A DNA stretch of 10,014 bases from the UHGV virus genome UHGV-0084903, one strand, 5' to 3'. Positions 2,435 to 6,799 of this stretch are shown piece by piece. The position numbers and the translations under genes are program-made. The first letter of the stretch is position 1, and the number at the start of each line of letters is the position of its first letter. Source of the DNA: a virus. The notes beneath the pieces were generated by a model that had not been told where the DNA came from, did no database searches, and saw nothing but the letters and a program-made list of their open reading frames with translations.

Positions 2435-3211
2435 ATGACAACTTTCACCGACAAAGAACTGATTAAAGAAATCAAAGAGCGCATAGGCAGCCTGGACGTT
2501 CGAGACAATATTGAGCGCCGGTCGTATGAAATTGCACTGGCATCGCTGGAAGCAGAGCCAGTGGCGTCATGCATTATTGAGGATGGGTGCATGTGTGTTG
2601 ACGGGTTCGGTGAGTATGTAGGTCACTCGCTGCCTGATGGAACGCACCAGCTTTACACCGCGCCGCCAGCGCTGGTAGTGCTTGATGAAATGGATTTGCT
2701 TACCTGCCATCTCGACGGTGTAACTGAAACATATGCTGATGGCTGGAACGCCTGCCGTGCCGCCATGCTTCAGGGTAGCCAACCTGTAAGCCAAACTTAC
2801 AACTTGCCAGAATTAATCGAAGGCATGGAAGTTTCCATTGATGTAAGCACTTGTGATGCTGATTTAGGTAATCGCTATTTCGGCACCGTCACCGAGGCGT
2901 TAGAACTTGATACAGCCAAGAATGGTTACATCCTCCTGGTTCAGGACGCAGAGCCAAACTTCGATGTAAATGGCAACTCTCCGGTAACTCCGGATGGTTG
3001 GATAAGCTGTAGTGAGCGAATGCCTGAAAAGGGCCAGAACGTGCTTATTTCGGTGAATTTCGATAGCTCTCTGGTTGAACCGCTAATATGCTCCGCACGC
3101 TATACCGGAAGCACCTTTCGGCGCGGAGATGCAACGATTAAGCCGGGTAATGGTATTGAGCAAGCAACTCACTGGATGCCGCTACCGGAACCGCCGCAGG
3201 AGGTGAAGTGA
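2435..3211 (+). CDS. DUF551 domain-containing phage protein
   Basis: 258-aa ORF. The C-terminal segment WISCSERMPEKGQNVLIS...ATHWMPLPEPP matches the DUF551 signature common in enterobacterial prophage early regions. Stop overlaps the start of the next gene. Confidence 0.7.
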   Translation: MTTFTDKELIKEIKERIGSLDVRDNIERRSYEIALASLEAEPVASCIIEDGCMCVDGFGEYVGHSLPDGTHQLYTAPPALVVLDEMDLLTCHLDGVTETYADGWNACRAAMLQGSQPVSQTYNLPELIEGMEVSIDVSTCDADLGNRYFGTVTEALELDTAKNGYILLVQDAEPNFDVNGNSPVTPDGWISCSERMPEKGQNVLISVNFDSSLVEPLICSARYTGSTFRRGDATIKPGNGIEQATHWMPLPEPPQEVK

Positions 3212-3783
3212 TGAACAACTTAATGATCGACCTTGAGACGATGGGGAAAAATAAGGATGCACCGATCGTTTCCATTGGCGCGGTGTTCTTCACTCCAGAA
3301 ACCGGAGACATCGGACAAGAATTCTATACAGTTGTTAGCCTGGAAAGTGCTATGGGGCAAGGAGCTACACCTGACGGCGATACCATCCTGTGGTGGTTGA
3401 AACAAAGCCCTGAAGCACGAGCTGCAATCTGTATTGATGATACTTTGTCGATCAGCGATGCTCTCTCAGAACTAAATCATTTCATTAACCGGCACGCAGC
3501 CAATACGAAATATTTAAAAGTCTGGGGTAACGGGGCCACCTTCGACAACGTAATTTTACGTGGAGCTTATGAGCGAGCAGGACAAATCTGCCCGTGGGCA
3601 TACTGGAATGACCACGATGTACGCACGATCGTTACGCTTGGGCGTTCCATCGGATTCGACCCCAAAATGGACATGCCTTTCGATGGCGAACGGCACAACG
3701 CCCTGGCCGATGCCCGTCATCAGGCAAAATATGTTTCCGCTATCTGGCAGAAATTAATTCCTGCCACCAGCACAGAATTATGA
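3211..3783 (+). CDS. DnaQ-like DEDDh 3'-5' exonuclease
   Basis: Exo I motif IDLETMG (D-x-E), Exo II WGNGATFDNVIL, Exo III H-x4-D (HNALADARH). AGGAGG at 3198..3203 is 7 nt from ATG 3211; the GTG at 3208 is an alternative start. Confidence 0.75.
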   Translation: MNNLMIDLETMGKNKDAPIVSIGAVFFTPETGDIGQEFYTVVSLESAMGQGATPDGDTILWWLKQSPEARAAICIDDTLSISDALSELNHFINRHAANTKYLKVWGNGATFDNVILRGAYERAGQICPWAYWNDHDVRTIVTLGRSIGFDPKMDMPFDGERHNALADARHQAKYVSAIWQKLIPATSTEL

Positions 3784-3819
3784 TTTTCCCGGGTGCAGCC
3801 GGTTTTGATGGAGAAAATT

Positions 3820-4101
3820 ATGAACACCTTGTTTTTACTGATGGCTGAATTCAATACCCCTAACATTGAACTCTCAGCAGTTAGCCAAAAGTACTTTGGC
3901 ATGAGTCCAGCCACGGCAGAAGCAAAAGCAAACGCTTGTAAGTTGCCCGTTCCAACATATCGCATCGGCACATCACAAAAAGCAAAACGTTGCATCAATA
4001 TTCAGGATCTTGCGGAATACATAGACAAAAGACGAGAAGAAGGACGTATCGAGTGGGAACAGGTCAGAACAAGCAAACAGAAGGGCAAAGAACATCACTA
4101 A
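3820..4101 (+). CDS. PrtN-family (pyocin-activator-like) DNA-binding protein, excisionase-like
   Basis: MNTLFLLMAEF...YFGMSPATAEAKANACKLPVPTYRIGTSQKAKRCINIQDLAEYIDKRR resembles the PrtN/phage excisionase family. GGAG lies 7 nt upstream of ATG 3820; the in-frame upstream starts (3793 GTG, 3808 ATG) lack an SD. It occupies the xis position upstream of int. Confidence 0.65.
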   Translation: MNTLFLLMAEFNTPNIELSAVSQKYFGMSPATAEAKANACKLPVPTYRIGTSQKAKRCINIQDLAEYIDKRREEGRIEWEQVRTSKQKGKEHH

Positions 4102-4135
4102 AGAAAAAACCCGCCTAAAGGCGGGTTTTCAAAAA
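4102..4135. terminator. Bidirectional rho-independent terminator between convergent genes
   Basis: A-tract (4102..4109), perfect GC stem CCCGCC (4110..4115), loop TAAA, stem GGCGGG (4120..4125), then TTTT (4126..4129). It sits 1 nt after the + strand stop (4101) and 14 nt after the - strand stop (4149). Confidence 0.75.
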
Positions 4136-4148
4136 GCACCAGCTATGA

Positions 4149-4322
4149 TCATGCTGCTTTGCGACGACGAAGCTTACCCTGCTGCTCTTTACCAGAGACA
4201 GTAGCGTGAGTGAACGCATTAGGAGCAGCCTTCATCAGAACTTCAACAGCAGCACCCATACCTGCGAATGCTTTCATTGTGTCGAACTTAACCTGTGGCT
4301 TGGTTGCTTTTTGATCTTTCAT
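4149..4322 (-). CDS. small basic protein (57 aa), unknown function; second gene of the reverse-strand cargo cassette
   Basis: Not in the ORF track (<60 aa). Reverse-strand ATG at 4322 is preceded by GGGAG with 6-nt spacing. Translation MKDQKATKPQVKFDTMKAFAGMGAAVEVLMKAAPNAFTHATVSGKEQQGKLRRRKAA, stop TGA at 4149..4151, followed directly by the strong terminator. Codon choice is enriched in GCT/GGT/CGT/GTT. Confidence 0.55.
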   Translation of the reverse strand: MKDQKATKPQVKFDTMKAFAGMGAAVEVLMKAAPNAFTHATVSGKEQQGKLRRRKAA

Positions 4323-4518
4323 AGAAAACTCCCGAGACAGTAAAGGCGTCTCTAACCCTCTCTTTAAAGCTAGCTTGTTTAGCTAACTTATGCCAATCGA
4401 TCATGTCGATTGGTGACATCGTTTCTTAGTAGTTTAAGCACAAAACGACTGCCATAGATGTACCTTTAAGGTAATCTGGACGGGTATCCTACAATTTGTA
4501 GACCCTTCTCGTCTATAC

Positions 4519-5055
4519 CTACTGAGCAAATTTAAGAAAGATATCCTGCAGCTCATCAATGACTGCAGACATCACATAACCGCACTGTTCCATGCGGAAA
4601 CCAAAAGACTCGTAATACTGCACCAGTTCTGGTACTGGCTCTACAATGTGGACAACTTTACATTCAACAGCTTTACAAAATATAAAAGCACTCATAAGAG
4701 TGAGTAAAACCATGCGCCCTTTCAATGGGTGAGATTCATCTTCTCTAGAAAACCTTTCGATCATATGGATACGAAAGATGTTTTCTTCAACCCCATAAAC
4801 ACAAATTGCTGCTCCTGATGGTATTCCCTGAACCCGACCTTGCTGAACAAGTTTTATGCAGAACTCATACTTTTCTCTGGAGTTGCCATAGGTGCTTAAC
4901 GCATAGTCCCATTCAAGCTCACCATAGCCACCACACAGAATCTTGTAATCATCATCACTGAGCGGACCAACAGCAAGAGGTAAGCCGACATGATCAATAA
5001 TCAACTGGATATTGTTACGTACAGATTGACCTATCTCGTCTAGGGTAAGCATCAT
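4519..5055 (-). CDS. hypothetical protein (178 aa) with GNAT-like acyl-CoA N-acyltransferase fold signature; first gene of the reverse-strand cargo cassette
   Basis: Long ORF in an AT-rich segment. The C-terminal half shows GNAT-like topology (FRIHMIERF ... GRMVLLTLMSAFIFCKA ... VVHIVEP ... LVQYYESFGFR), but the canonical R/Q-x-x-G-x-G/A acetyl-CoA loop is not obvious. Fold assignment is tentative. Confidence 0.6.
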   Translation of the reverse strand: MMLTLDEIGQSVRNNIQLIIDHVGLPLAVGPLSDDDYKILCGGYGELEWDYALSTYGNSREKYEFCIKLVQQGRVQGIPSGAAICVYGVEENIFRIHMIERFSREDESHPLKGRMVLLTLMSAFIFCKAVECKVVHIVEPVPELVQYYESFGFRMEQCGYVMSAVIDELQDIFLKFAQ

Positions 5056-5084
5056 AGACTCTCAAGCGGAACACTAAAAATCTC

Positions 5085-5090
5085 ATTATA
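5085..5090 (-). promoter_or_regulatory. candidate -10 hexamer (TATAAT on - strand) for the reverse-strand cargo operon
   Basis: Perfect TATAAT on the reverse strand about 30 nt upstream of the 178-aa gene ATG. No convincing -35 was found, so this is a weak call. Confidence 0.3.
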
Positions 5091-5137
5091 TCTCATTCTG
5101 ATGCCCCGCATGGATTACACCTTGAAATGAAAACACC

Positions 5138-5371
5138 GGGTTCCCAATAGGCTCCCACAAAGTGTATAACTACTTGTTTTTCAAAAACGGTACATCCTAT
5201 CGAGCATAGGAGCAATGCTAAACCGAGAATTCCAGTAAACACCAGTTTTTTCAGGCATCACGCTGGTTTGATTAATTTTTTGTGTTTCATGATTATCGTG
5301 CATTTTTGAACATTTCAGGCTATTTTTCTCGCGTTAGGTTCCCGCACAGGTTCCCACGTTTTATGGGAACC
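5138..5371. repeat. Cluster of GGTTCCC(A) motifs in the int upstream region, including an inverted pair
   Basis: GGTTCCC at 5139..5145, 5337..5343 and 5349..5355; inverted copy GGGAACC at 5365..5371. The last two form an 8-bp inverted repeat GGTTCCCA-N7-TGGGAACC ending 20 nt before the int ATG. A separate 6-bp IR TCCTAT-N5-ATAGGA lies at 5195..5211. Confidence 0.5.
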
Positions 5372-5391
5372 CGAAATAACGAGGTCGTGTA

Positions 5392-6489
5392 ATGGCGTAC
5401 TATAACATAGAGAAACGACTAAAATCCGATGGCACACCACGCTATCGCTGTAATGTGATTATCAAAGAAAAAGGTGTTATCACTTACAGGGAAAGCAAAA
5501 CATTCCCTAAACATGCTCATGCCAAAACATGGGGAACACAGAAAGTGATGGAATTAGATCTATATGGCATTCCATCATCAAATGCAGTTGACGGACTTAC
5601 AGTCCGTGACTTACTACACAAATATTTAAATGACCCAAATGCCGGAGGTAAAGCAGGCCGTACTAAAAGATATGTGCTGGAACTGCTTATGGATAGTGAC
5701 ATCTCCGCGATCAAACTATCTGAACTGACAGAAAATGACGTAATTGAACATTGCAGGCTAAGAAACAACGCTGGTGCAGGTCCAGCAACAGTCAGCCACG
5801 ATGTTAGTTATCTTGGCAGTGTTCTGGATGCGGCCAAACCTGTATACGGAATTAATTACACATCAAACCCGGCGAAAAGCGCTCGCCCATATCTACTTAA
5901 ACTTGGTTTGATTGGTAAATCAAACCGTCGTAATCGTAGACCAGCATCTGATGAACTGGACATGCTCATTGAAGGCCTTCAACAACGATCTACTCATAAA
6001 TGCTCAAAAATTCCGTTCGTTGATATCCTCAAATTTTCTGTGTGGTCCTGTATGCGGATCGGAGAAGTATGCCGGTTACGATGGGAAGATCTCGACCAGG
6101 AACAAAAATCTATACTCGTAAGAGACAGGAAAGATCCACGCAAAAAGGAAGGCAACCACATGAAAGTAGCCTTGCTTGGGGAAGCCTGGGATATCGTCCA
6201 ACGACAGCCCAAAAAATCGGAATTCATTTTTCCATATAACAGCACTTCTGTTACTGCAGGATTTCAGAGGGTAAGAAGCAAATTAGGTATTAAAGATCTG
6301 CGATACCATGATTTGCGTAGAGAAGGGGCAAGTCGCTTATTTGAGGCTGGTTTTAGTATTGAGGAAGTCGCTCAGGTTACAGGGCATCGTTCATTAAACG
6401 TGCTATGGCAGGTATATACCGAACTGTATCCGAAATCTTTACATAATCGTTTTGAAGAGCTCCAAAGGAGCAGAAATAAGACCTCTTGA
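5392..6489 (+). CDS. int: Tyrosine site-specific recombinase (phage integrase)
   Basis: 365-aa ORF; GAGG 7 nt upstream of the ATG. Catalytic-domain signature: Arg in CMRIGEVCRLRWEDL, H-x-x-R in HDLRREGAS, His in TGHRS and a downstream Tyr (VLWQVYTELY). Confidence 0.85.
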   Translation: MAYYNIEKRLKSDGTPRYRCNVIIKEKGVITYRESKTFPKHAHAKTWGTQKVMELDLYGIPSSNAVDGLTVRDLLHKYLNDPNAGGKAGRTKRYVLELLMDSDISAIKLSELTENDVIEHCRLRNNAGAGPATVSHDVSYLGSVLDAAKPVYGINYTSNPAKSARPYLLKLGLIGKSNRRNRRPASDELDMLIEGLQQRSTHKCSKIPFVDILKFSVWSCMRIGEVCRLRWEDLDQEQKSILVRDRKDPRKKEGNHMKVALLGEAWDIVQRQPKKSEFIFPYNSTSVTAGFQRVRSKLGIKDLRYHDLRREGASRLFEAGFSIEEVAQVTGHRSLNVLWQVYTELYPKSLHNRFEELQRSRNKTS

Positions 6490-6535
6490 CACTGTTTATC
6501 CATACAGTTAAAAATAACACTGTATACAAACACAG
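6486..6535 (+). promoter_or_regulatory. Sigma70-type promoter with two LexA (SOS) boxes controlling the DinI-like gene
   Basis: -35 TTGACA (6486..6491, overlapping the int stop codon), 17-bp spacer, -10 TAAAAT (6509..6514). LexA box 1 CTGT-ttatccat-ACAG (6492..6507) fills the spacer; LexA box 2 CTGT-atacaaac-ACAG (6520..6535) covers the predicted start site. Both are perfect CTGT-N8-ACAG with AT-rich spacers. Confidence 0.8.
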
Positions 6536-6550
6536 TATAGAGGGACTTTT

Positions 6551-6799
6551 ATGCGTATTGAGATCTGCATAGCCAAAGAAAAAATGACTAAAATGCCAAA
6601 CGGTGCTGTGGATGCGTTAAAGGAAGAATTAACCCGACGCATCAGTAAACGTTATGACGATGTAGAGGTGATCGTAAAAGCCACCAGCAACGATGGCCTT
6701 TCTGTTACGCGCACCGCCGATAAAGATTCAGCTAAAACTTTTGTTCAGGAAACTCTGAAAGATACCTGGGAGTCTGCTGACGAGTGGTTTGTTCACTAA
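6551..6799 (+). CDS. dinI: DinI-like DNA-damage-inducible protein
   Basis: 82-aa ORF closely resembling E. coli DinI at both ends (MRIE.IAK..., ...[10 protein letters not shown]). GAGGG lies 6 nt upstream of the ATG. The LexA-box promoter immediately upstream supports the call. Confidence 0.85.

Follow-up and report, generated by a model that had tools for sequence, protein, structure and literature searches.

What are the two minus-strand genes that lie between the excisionase-like gene and the integrase gene of the virus genome UHGV-0084903, and do they work as one system? We analysed a 10,014-nt stretch of this genome (the window), in which an original prediction made from the letters alone had singled out positions 4102..5391 as a reverse-oriented two-gene cargo cassette. 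The listing of open reading frames (ORFs) agrees on both genes, at 4519..5055 (178 aa) and 4149..4322 (57 aa). The expectation that neither protein would resemble a standard phage function also held up in the profile searches that the prediction had proposed: neither protein matched Pfam, NCBIfam or, at E ≤ 1, PADLOC-DB v2, and both fall in PHROGs of unknown function (phrog_4350 and phrog_2741). Our reading, which we put forward tentatively, is that the pair may be a self-contained moron, in which an acyltransferase effector is accompanied by a small cognate protein that would neutralise or gate the enzyme.

The larger gene (4519..5055, minus strand; 178 aa if translated from the first ATG and 177 aa if begun at the ATG at 5052, as annotated in coliphage mEp460) encodes an acyltransferase-like protein with a GNAT fold. 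Structure prediction returned a confident GNAT model that matches solved GNATs, SpeG and AAC-type enzymes among them, and the superfamily topology β1-α1-α2-β2-4-α3-β5-α4-β6 is present. No curated GNAT profile recognised the sequence, since neither Pfam nor NCBIfam gave a match at E ≤ 0.1–1; a PDB sequence search returned gp41 as its sole match, which was spurious. We found 51 homologs at 39–99% identity in Enterobacterales and Shewanella, a few of them named 'N-acetyltransferase domain' by UniRef, and a profile search of 1.84 billion representative proteins retrieved only 99 members of this family at E ≤ 1e-3. None of 56 remote members rose above the Pfam threshold, one giving a sub-threshold match to Acetyltransf_1, and scans of viral contigs for four more remote GNAT relatives gave no matches. 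The 178-aa protein is thus an uncharacterised family of the known GNAT superfamily. The suggestion that this locus holds an undescribed system is possible yet unproven, and such a system would not be without precedent because its larger protein is recognisable as a GNAT-fold enzyme.

Residue conservation is compatible with acyl-CoA-dependent transferase activity. W49, E100, the stretch H109-P-L-x-G113 and Y148-x-x-x-G-F are conserved throughout the family, and W49, E100 (in β4) and Y148 (in α4, 'YYxxFGF') stay near-invariant across the wider family, down to ~15–35% identity. The general base and general acid of GNATs usually lie in β4 and α4, and a role of the conserved E100 and Y148 in such chemistry would fit their positions. 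The 13-residue β4–α3 loop keeps H-P-L-x-G-R/K but not the canonical Q/RxxGxG/A. The gene is under constraint, with nonsynonymous divergence (pN) of 0.06–0.26 while synonymous sites are saturated. The protein is strongly acidic, with a net charge of −10.2, an isoelectric point (pI) of 4.8 and a family median charge of −13, figures that describe bulk charge rather than a mapped surface. Because of this acidity we infer a cationic substrate rather than an aminoacyl-tRNA of the kind used by TacT/AtaT-type enzymes.

The smaller gene (4149..4322, minus strand) is preceded by a Shine–Dalgarno sequence, GGGAG at 4329..4333, that was rated strong, and its ratio of nonsynonymous to synonymous divergence (dN/dS) of 0.03–0.3 indicates that it is translated and constrained. 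Its 57-aa product is basic (pI 10.5, net charge +7.6, family median +7.5). It is predicted to form one amphipathic helix (residues 15–32) between disordered basic tails, with a predicted local distance difference test score of 62.6, and ends in ...GKLRRRKAA, a tail similar to the C-terminal ClpX signals found in MuA and ssrA. The family shares a core, G-x-A-x3-L-x-K-A-A-P, which is separated by ~10 residues from a C-terminal E-x-Q/H-G-x-R-[KR]-x-x-A-A.

The two genes travel together. In all 115 GNAT loci that were fetched, the small gene lies 3′ of the GNAT gene, on the same strand and 95–275 nt away; these loci include an unannotated ORF in phage Eeyore and a relative at 35% identity, and a GNAT gene lacking the small gene was found in 0 of the 115. 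The pair occurs in E. coli, Salmonella, Atlantibacter, Enterobacter, Citrobacter, Edwardsiella, Serratia, Photorhabdus, Xenorhabdus and Shewanella as well as in Eeyore, and in at least four kinds of insertion context: right after the Q antiterminator and before the lysis genes (Atlantibacter, Enterobacter, Citrobacter, Edwardsiella, Serratia, Eeyore), within the tail/baseplate cluster (Photorhabdus), at a prophage edge (Shewanella and Pseudescherichia) and at the dusA attachment (att) end (E. coli and Salmonella). In Escherichia sp. ESNIH1 host genes border the pair on either side, as far as the flanks were examined. One Serratia prophage with the pair after Q (L038) also carries, after its lysis genes at 6488..6769, a protein of the Acb2/Tad1-hairpin family, an anti-CBASS/Thoeris sponge family.

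This linkage bears on whether the two genes are merely co-travelling cargo, with the GNAT serving lysogenic conversion as a detoxifying or metabolic acetyltransferase for a small molecule (a polyamine, an aminoglycoside-like compound or another cation) and the small gene having an unrelated role. The enzyme shares its acidity with SpeG and AAC-type GNATs, both among its fold matches, the genes have separate promoter-like elements, and they differ greatly in divergence. Between E. coli and Salmonella (loci L014, L004 and L019) the small gene shows a synonymous divergence (dS) of 0.08 and the GNAT gene one of 1.33, and protein identities are typically 90–96% for the partner versus 65–72% for the enzyme (for example, 93% versus 66%). 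Because divergence is so unequal, either recombination between the genes or extra constraint on the small gene is implied, and the pattern suggests a mosaic history. The small gene also persists with a different upstream cassette, as described below. Linkage alone, however, would hardly maintain complete co-occurrence, in fixed order and strand, over 35–100% identity and at least four insertion contexts in mosaic phages. Even in a very distant GNAT clade, whose prophage copies are sited between lysis genes and terminase, the enzyme gene is directly followed by a small gene (L122 4143..4421; L124 4173..4337), which there encodes an acidic protein of an unrelated family (MRTS[RQ]EIL...), which suggests partner swapping within the GNAT family. 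We consider independence of the two genes quite unlikely.

The locus also behaves as accessory cargo. Alignment of the xis–int junction with collinear relatives, the comparison that the original prediction had called for, showed a variable slot whose contents are present, absent or replaced: homology with phages SKA5 and PhiR40_1 on the att side stops at ~5130 and resumes 12 nt before the small-gene ATG in SKA5 and only at the terminator in PhiR40_1. The variable cargo proper thus spans ~4105/4335 to ~5130, rather than the proposed 4102..5391. Among 5,426 complete E. coli genomes, at least 358 carry the GNAT version (80% or more of the query), O157:H7 and O111 strains among them. In related dusA prophages the slot may instead contain a Panacea-domain antitoxin (PF13274) with a 128/139-aa partner, again followed by the small gene, or a pair with YafO_toxin (PF13957), or an additional nuclease of the CoiA-like type; one Salmonella prophage has an HTH + 2TM gene there. 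By eye, the 128/139-aa protein 3′ of the Panacea antitoxin (L012 2070..2456 and L002 3663..4082) resembles MazF/PemK (...VLVVNISS...D.SCVL..GDH...), and it has no Pfam or PADLOC match. PanT toxins of such a kind without CDD hits were reported by Kurata et al. (PMC8832971).

The Panacea variant, which is common among E. coli genomes, is the only setting in which the small gene was found without the GNAT gene. All three copies examined (L002 3450..3623, L012 1857..2030 and L013 3173..3346) carry K2E at an otherwise invariant lysine, a change that may have been tolerated once selection relaxed, or favoured once the GNAT was gone; the L013 copy also has a mutated Shine–Dalgarno sequence and three more substitutions. 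Lysines bear on an alternative in which the small basic protein is the dedicated substrate of the GNAT, acylated at its N terminus or at a lysine. It would then be the acylated peptide that acts, for instance by exclusion, by timing lysis, or by binding nucleic acid or the ribosome. No lysine is common to the whole partner family, the proteins of Eeyore and of the L121 relative lacking both K2 and the C-terminal lysine, and K2E amounts to a single event in one lineage. Moreover, a simple substrate needs neither a separate promoter nor a leader, and the orphan partner is retained in these GNAT-less copies of a common variant. An enzyme–substrate pair therefore seems unlikely to us.

A putative promoter P1 is marked by a −10 hexamer, TATAAT at 5085..5090 (minus strand), 32 nt 5′ of the GNAT start, with no recognisable −35 element and a transcript start expected at ~5078. 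A TATAAT, TACAAT or TAAAAT hexamer lies 30–36 nt 5′ of the GNAT ATG in at least 11 of 16 lineages, the −35 again not being conserved, and in the Atlantibacter copy between Q and the holin gene homology starts at the P1 −10 and ends at a shared terminator. The intercistronic spacer (4323..4518, minus strand) combines a promoter-like element, P2, with a structured leader of ~160 nt. P2 consists of a −35 element TAGACG (4510..4515) separated by N18 from a −10 element TAGGAT (4486..4491), both on the minus strand, and would start transcripts at ~4479. Nearly all lineages keep such an element here, where the GNAT gene stops; its score is 9/12 in Xenorhabdus and in the remote relative and 11/12 in Shewanella (TTGATA-N16-TATAAT).

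The leader behaves like a structured RNA, to judge from its predicted folding and covariation. Its minimum free energy is −60.9 kcal/mol (z −3.9 versus shuffles; z ≤ −2.3 in 12 of 15 lineages), with minus-strand hairpins H1 (4460..4474), H2 (4393..4413), H3 (4367..4389) and H4 (4334..4352). Three hairpins keep their pairing over ten enterobacterial lineages, with 85.7% of cells paired versus 18–46% in slid controls, and the leader hairpins contain five compensatory pairs; 14 of 500 shuffles gave at least that many. An Rfam scan of 4050–5450 gave only terminator-driven sub-threshold matches and no family for the spacer. The leader may serve in stability, translational control or processing. Two other candidates within the spacer were considered. 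The palindrome TACCTTAAAGGTA, viewed as an operator, fits an RNA hairpin better because its arms are kept across lineages while its loop varies, and a DNA-binding site is the less likely reading. A 43-aa ORF (4288..4419, minus strand), which a stop codon disrupts in Atlantibacter and for which PHROG and Pfam gave no match, is not a gene.

An intrinsic terminator at 4105..4130 (minus strand), GAAAACCCGCC-TTTA-GGCGGGTTTTT followed by a T-run, closes the unit 3′ of the small gene with an 11-bp stem, and the Atlantibacter copy between Q and the holin gene shares this terminator after its small gene. It had been described as strong in both directions, which is right for the minus strand; read on the plus strand, from the xis side, it is weaker, with only UUUU after the stem, and fails the scan criterion. 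The module would thus read as P1, GNAT gene, P2, structured leader, small gene and terminator. These positionally conserved promoter-like elements and the terminator, together with the polymorphic slot and the recurrence of the pair as a unit at other moron sites, support the earlier view of the cassette as moron or accessory cargo at an int-proximal hotspot.

Where the original prediction saw an AT-rich divergent promoter region shared with int, we found the phage attachment site. The attP region (5130..5391, minus strand) was delimited from split E. coli genome matches at 5200–5306, junction alignment, repeats and lysogen annotations. It contains the crossover core ATGCTCGA (5200..5207), placed by aligning attP with both prophage junctions, and a phage-borne surrogate of the 5′ part of dusA (ORF 5181..5303, minus strand). 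Besides the first ~33 codons of dusA, the phage brings its own promoter region; the promoter region of the surrogate dusA and of int lies within 5130..5391. The heptamer GGGAACC occurs five times in the whole window, against 0.74 expected by chance, and four copies surround the att core (one inverted), at 5139..5145 in the P′ arm and at 5337–5343, 5349–5355 and 5365–5371; these are probably arm-type binding sites for the integrase or Xis. The variable cargo slot starts directly past the P′-side repeat. A 49-aa ORF with a GTG start (5093..5242, minus strand) spans the att core in another frame, with a hydrophobic, signal-peptide-like N terminus (MFTGILGLALLLCSIGC...) and a weak match to phrog_15735 (E 0.025); integration would change this ORF, which is unlikely to be a real gene.

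Lysogens show how this arrangement resolves. The region is present in 742 of the 5,426 E. coli genomes and in every case is split over two places. One prophage end carries window positions 3793..5306, comprising xis, both cassette genes and a truncated 'tRNA-dihydrouridine synthase', and the other carries 5200..5500 with full-length dusA and int. The xis and int genes, separated by attP as well as by cargo, come to lie at opposite prophage ends. The earlier picture, in which the cassette had been inserted between xis and int genes that would otherwise adjoin, does not stand as it was put: attP and the dusA surrogate lie between cassette and int, and the gap is attP plus cargo, the normal layout of this phage group.

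Elements with dusA-specific integrases were defined by integration into the 5′ end of dusA, which restores the gene and leaves a 5′ remnant (Farrugia et al. 2015, PMC4482086). The element in the window conforms to this definition, given its split match in the 742 genomes with full-length dusA beside int and truncated dusA beside the cassette, and it shares with those elements the integrase next to dusA, the replacement 5′ end and the stub at the far junction. Unlike that description, which covers the integrase and att system, cargo here lies directly 3′ of the remnant stub. On integration the phage-borne 5′ part takes the place of the host 5′ end, and the displaced host promoter and dusA stub fuse to phage DNA, the stub stopping after '...APMLDRMYRF'. 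The lysogen then runs from the host intergenic region through the dusA stub to the GNAT gene and on to the small gene, with the GNAT start ~125 nt past the stub end and no intervening terminator. The cassette therefore has the same orientation as, and lies 3′ of, a dusA promoter in both states, namely the phage surrogate in the circular form and the native host promoter in the lysogen. Because a co-oriented dusA promoter is always upstream, the cassette should be expressed from the prophage, and we propose from this layout that the dusA promoter may drive it.

Taken together, these observations suggest an autonomous and horizontally mobile two-gene prophage moron. Its first gene would encode an acyltransferase with a GNAT fold and a strongly negative charge, one of a small family without a Pfam model, probably still catalytically competent, that probably acylates a basic target (a protein amine or a polyamine-like molecule) rather than aminoacyl-tRNA. 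Its second gene would supply a dedicated, basic and largely disordered 57-aa partner that may bind the enzyme and neutralise or gate it, in the manner of an antitoxin or a pseudo-substrate, and that would be made from its own promoter through the structured leader, independently of the enzyme. The payoff would most likely be addiction of the toxin–antitoxin (TA) kind, abortive infection or exclusion, or some other modification of the host. The analysis shows the gene pair, its fold, conservation and mobility, the att anatomy and the promoter and terminator signals, whereas catalysis, target class, physical interaction, direction of neutralisation and phenotype are inferred. A TA-like relationship is supported because the GNAT is never found alone while the small gene survives without it, because the partner would be expressed separately and presumably more strongly, because a disordered basic partner faces an acidic enzyme, because the slot otherwise holds TA modules (Panacea and YafO_toxin) and because the pair persists after prophage decay.

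Several observations weigh against this proposal. The enzyme-first order and the ~190-nt spacer are atypical of type II TA systems, and the partner has changed far less than the enzyme, whereas in most antitoxins it is the other way round. Nor are the charges always complementary, because the partner in the distant clade is acidic and unrelated. The acetyl-CoA motif of the enzyme is degenerate (H109-P-L-K-G113-R-M, with a single glycine), which leaves donor binding unproven. P1 and P2 match the consensus at only 8 of 12 positions in the window. No homolog has a known function, and the PADLOC search, as noted, was negative for both proteins.

A further point of this kind concerns timing. Most copies head the late operon between Q and holin, which is equally compatible with a role in the lytic cycle. 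The GNAT could then be an anti-defence or host-takeover enzyme that acylates a host defence protein or another basic factor of the host, in which case the small protein would serve it as cofactor or confer specificity as a subunit. There is precedent in AcrVA5, which acylates Cas12a, and an acidic enzyme would suit basic protein targets. Besides the copies right after Q, others lie within tail genes, and neighbouring cargo at such sites includes DNA methyltransferases and an Acb2/Tad1-like gene. Late-operon timing is nevertheless poor for counter-defence, and the cassette's own promoter-like elements and terminator are typical of prophage-expressed morons. Host dusA transcription would, moreover, enter the cassette in a lysogen of this phage, and we know of no similarity between the GNAT and AcrVA5 (92 aa). 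We accordingly regard a lytic-cycle function as improbable.

Window positions 3700–5500 are 98% identical to mEp460 (NC_019716), in which the counterparts of both minus-strand ORFs are annotated 'hypothetical protein'. The xis-like gene (3793..4101, plus strand) belongs to the PrtN/excisionase family (Pfam PF11112, E 4e-23; phrog_1300 'excisionase', E 8e-40) and is transcribed toward the cassette, convergently with it. On the other side, the plus-strand tyrosine integrase gene (5392..6489; Pfam PF00589) is of the dusA-specific type and adjoins full-length dusA in lysogens. A Rv2179c-like 3′-5′ exonuclease gene (3208..3783, plus strand) lies just 5′ of xis and a DinI-family gene (6551..6799, plus strand) just 3′ of int, both conserved in mEp460. 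The impression that the cassette is richer in AT than the ea operon was correct as far as it went, GC content being 0.40–0.43 across 4200–5400 versus 0.47–0.53 in the ea operon. Low GC is not specific to the cassette, however, because it runs on through int and dinI (0.39–0.44). Overall, what the original prediction observed is partly confirmed and its interpretation partly supported.

The pair is widespread: many Enterobacterales and Shewanella have homologous pairs in their prophages. Both proteins are nevertheless called 'hypothetical' and stand outside Pfam, NCBIfam and PADLOC. We found no description of it in the literature on mEp460, on GNATs in anti-phage or prophage contexts, or on Panacea/NetFlax. 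Should it prove to be a TA or defence module, it would add a GNAT effector class unlikely to act on tRNA, an unrelated small partner and a layout of two promoters and a structured leader. The att-proximal placement offers a simple, testable case of prophage genes wired to a host housekeeping promoter on integration. A bolder version of the proposal, which we think has a small chance of being right, is a hitherto unrecognised phage-borne effector system in which the acidic GNAT acylates a basic non-tRNA target (for instance basic DNA- or RNA-binding proteins of an incoming phage or of the host, or polyamines) and is checked by the 57-aa protein as a pseudo-substrate under structured-leader control; it would constitute a new mechanistic class of prophage defence or exclusion, or else of counter-defence, which a lysogen would activate by capturing the dusA promoter of its host.

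Among known systems, the cassette combines a familiar enzyme superfamily and a familiar genomic niche with an unusual regulatory layout. Lambdoid morons, such as lambda bor and lom or HK97 gp15, follow the concept of Juhala and Hendrix. Like them, the cassette forms an additional transcription unit that brings a promoter-like element and a terminator of its own. Some close relatives have it and others lack it, its base composition deviates, and it occupies sites where functional modules meet, among them the stretch from Q to the lysis genes in which Stx phages carry stx. Its terminator is clear, and its putative promoters score 8/12 in the window but are positionally conserved across lineages. 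It differs from these morons in having two genes, an internal second promoter, a structured leader and, in this phage, a position in which a dusA promoter would read into it.

The closest known systems on the enzymatic side include the protein N-terminal acetyltransferases NatD/Naa40, Ard1 and RimI and the GNAT/RHH type II TA systems TacAT, AtaRT, KacAT and ItaRT. The latter pair the enzyme with a DUF1778/RHH antitoxin, whereas the cassette's partner is a 57-aa single-helix protein without a Pfam match; gene order is reversed here, with a ~190-nt spacer carrying its own promoter. No DUF1778/RHH antitoxin gene lies upstream, where only the att region precedes the GNAT gene, the partner being 3′. 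Sequence identity to these toxins is ~10–14%, and the cassette GNAT matches no Pfam GNAT model. TacT/AtaT-type toxins bind tRNA through a basic surface, which would not be expected of the cassette GNAT at its net charge of −10.2, a bulk figure.

TopAI–YjhQ of the E. coli element KpLE2 is likewise an acetyltransferase-family protein with a small protein on a prophage-like element, in the opposite gene order. It provides the precedent for an inverse, type VII-like scheme, in which toxicity would lie with the small basic protein and the GNAT, as its antitoxin, would neutralise it enzymatically by acylation, as YjhQ, an acetyltransferase-family antitoxin by annotation, is paired with an 85-aa toxin. 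An antitoxin-first order would fit this scheme. Neither cassette protein is detectably related to its supposed counterpart (hhalign probability 0.4% for YjhQ and 0.2% for TopAI), and a toxin is not normally given the stronger Shine–Dalgarno sequence and its own constitutive-looking promoter. The small gene also stands without the GNAT in 3 of 3 Panacea-variant loci examined, a variant common in E. coli, and would be lethal there unless K2E inactivates it. We therefore judge the inverse scheme very unlikely. Because the cassette has no RHH/DUF1778 protein, has an acidic enzyme and is unrelated to TopAI and YjhQ, we do not place it in those families and instead file it as a GNAT-based two-gene accessory module, outside the TacAT/AtaRT and TopAI/YjhQ families.

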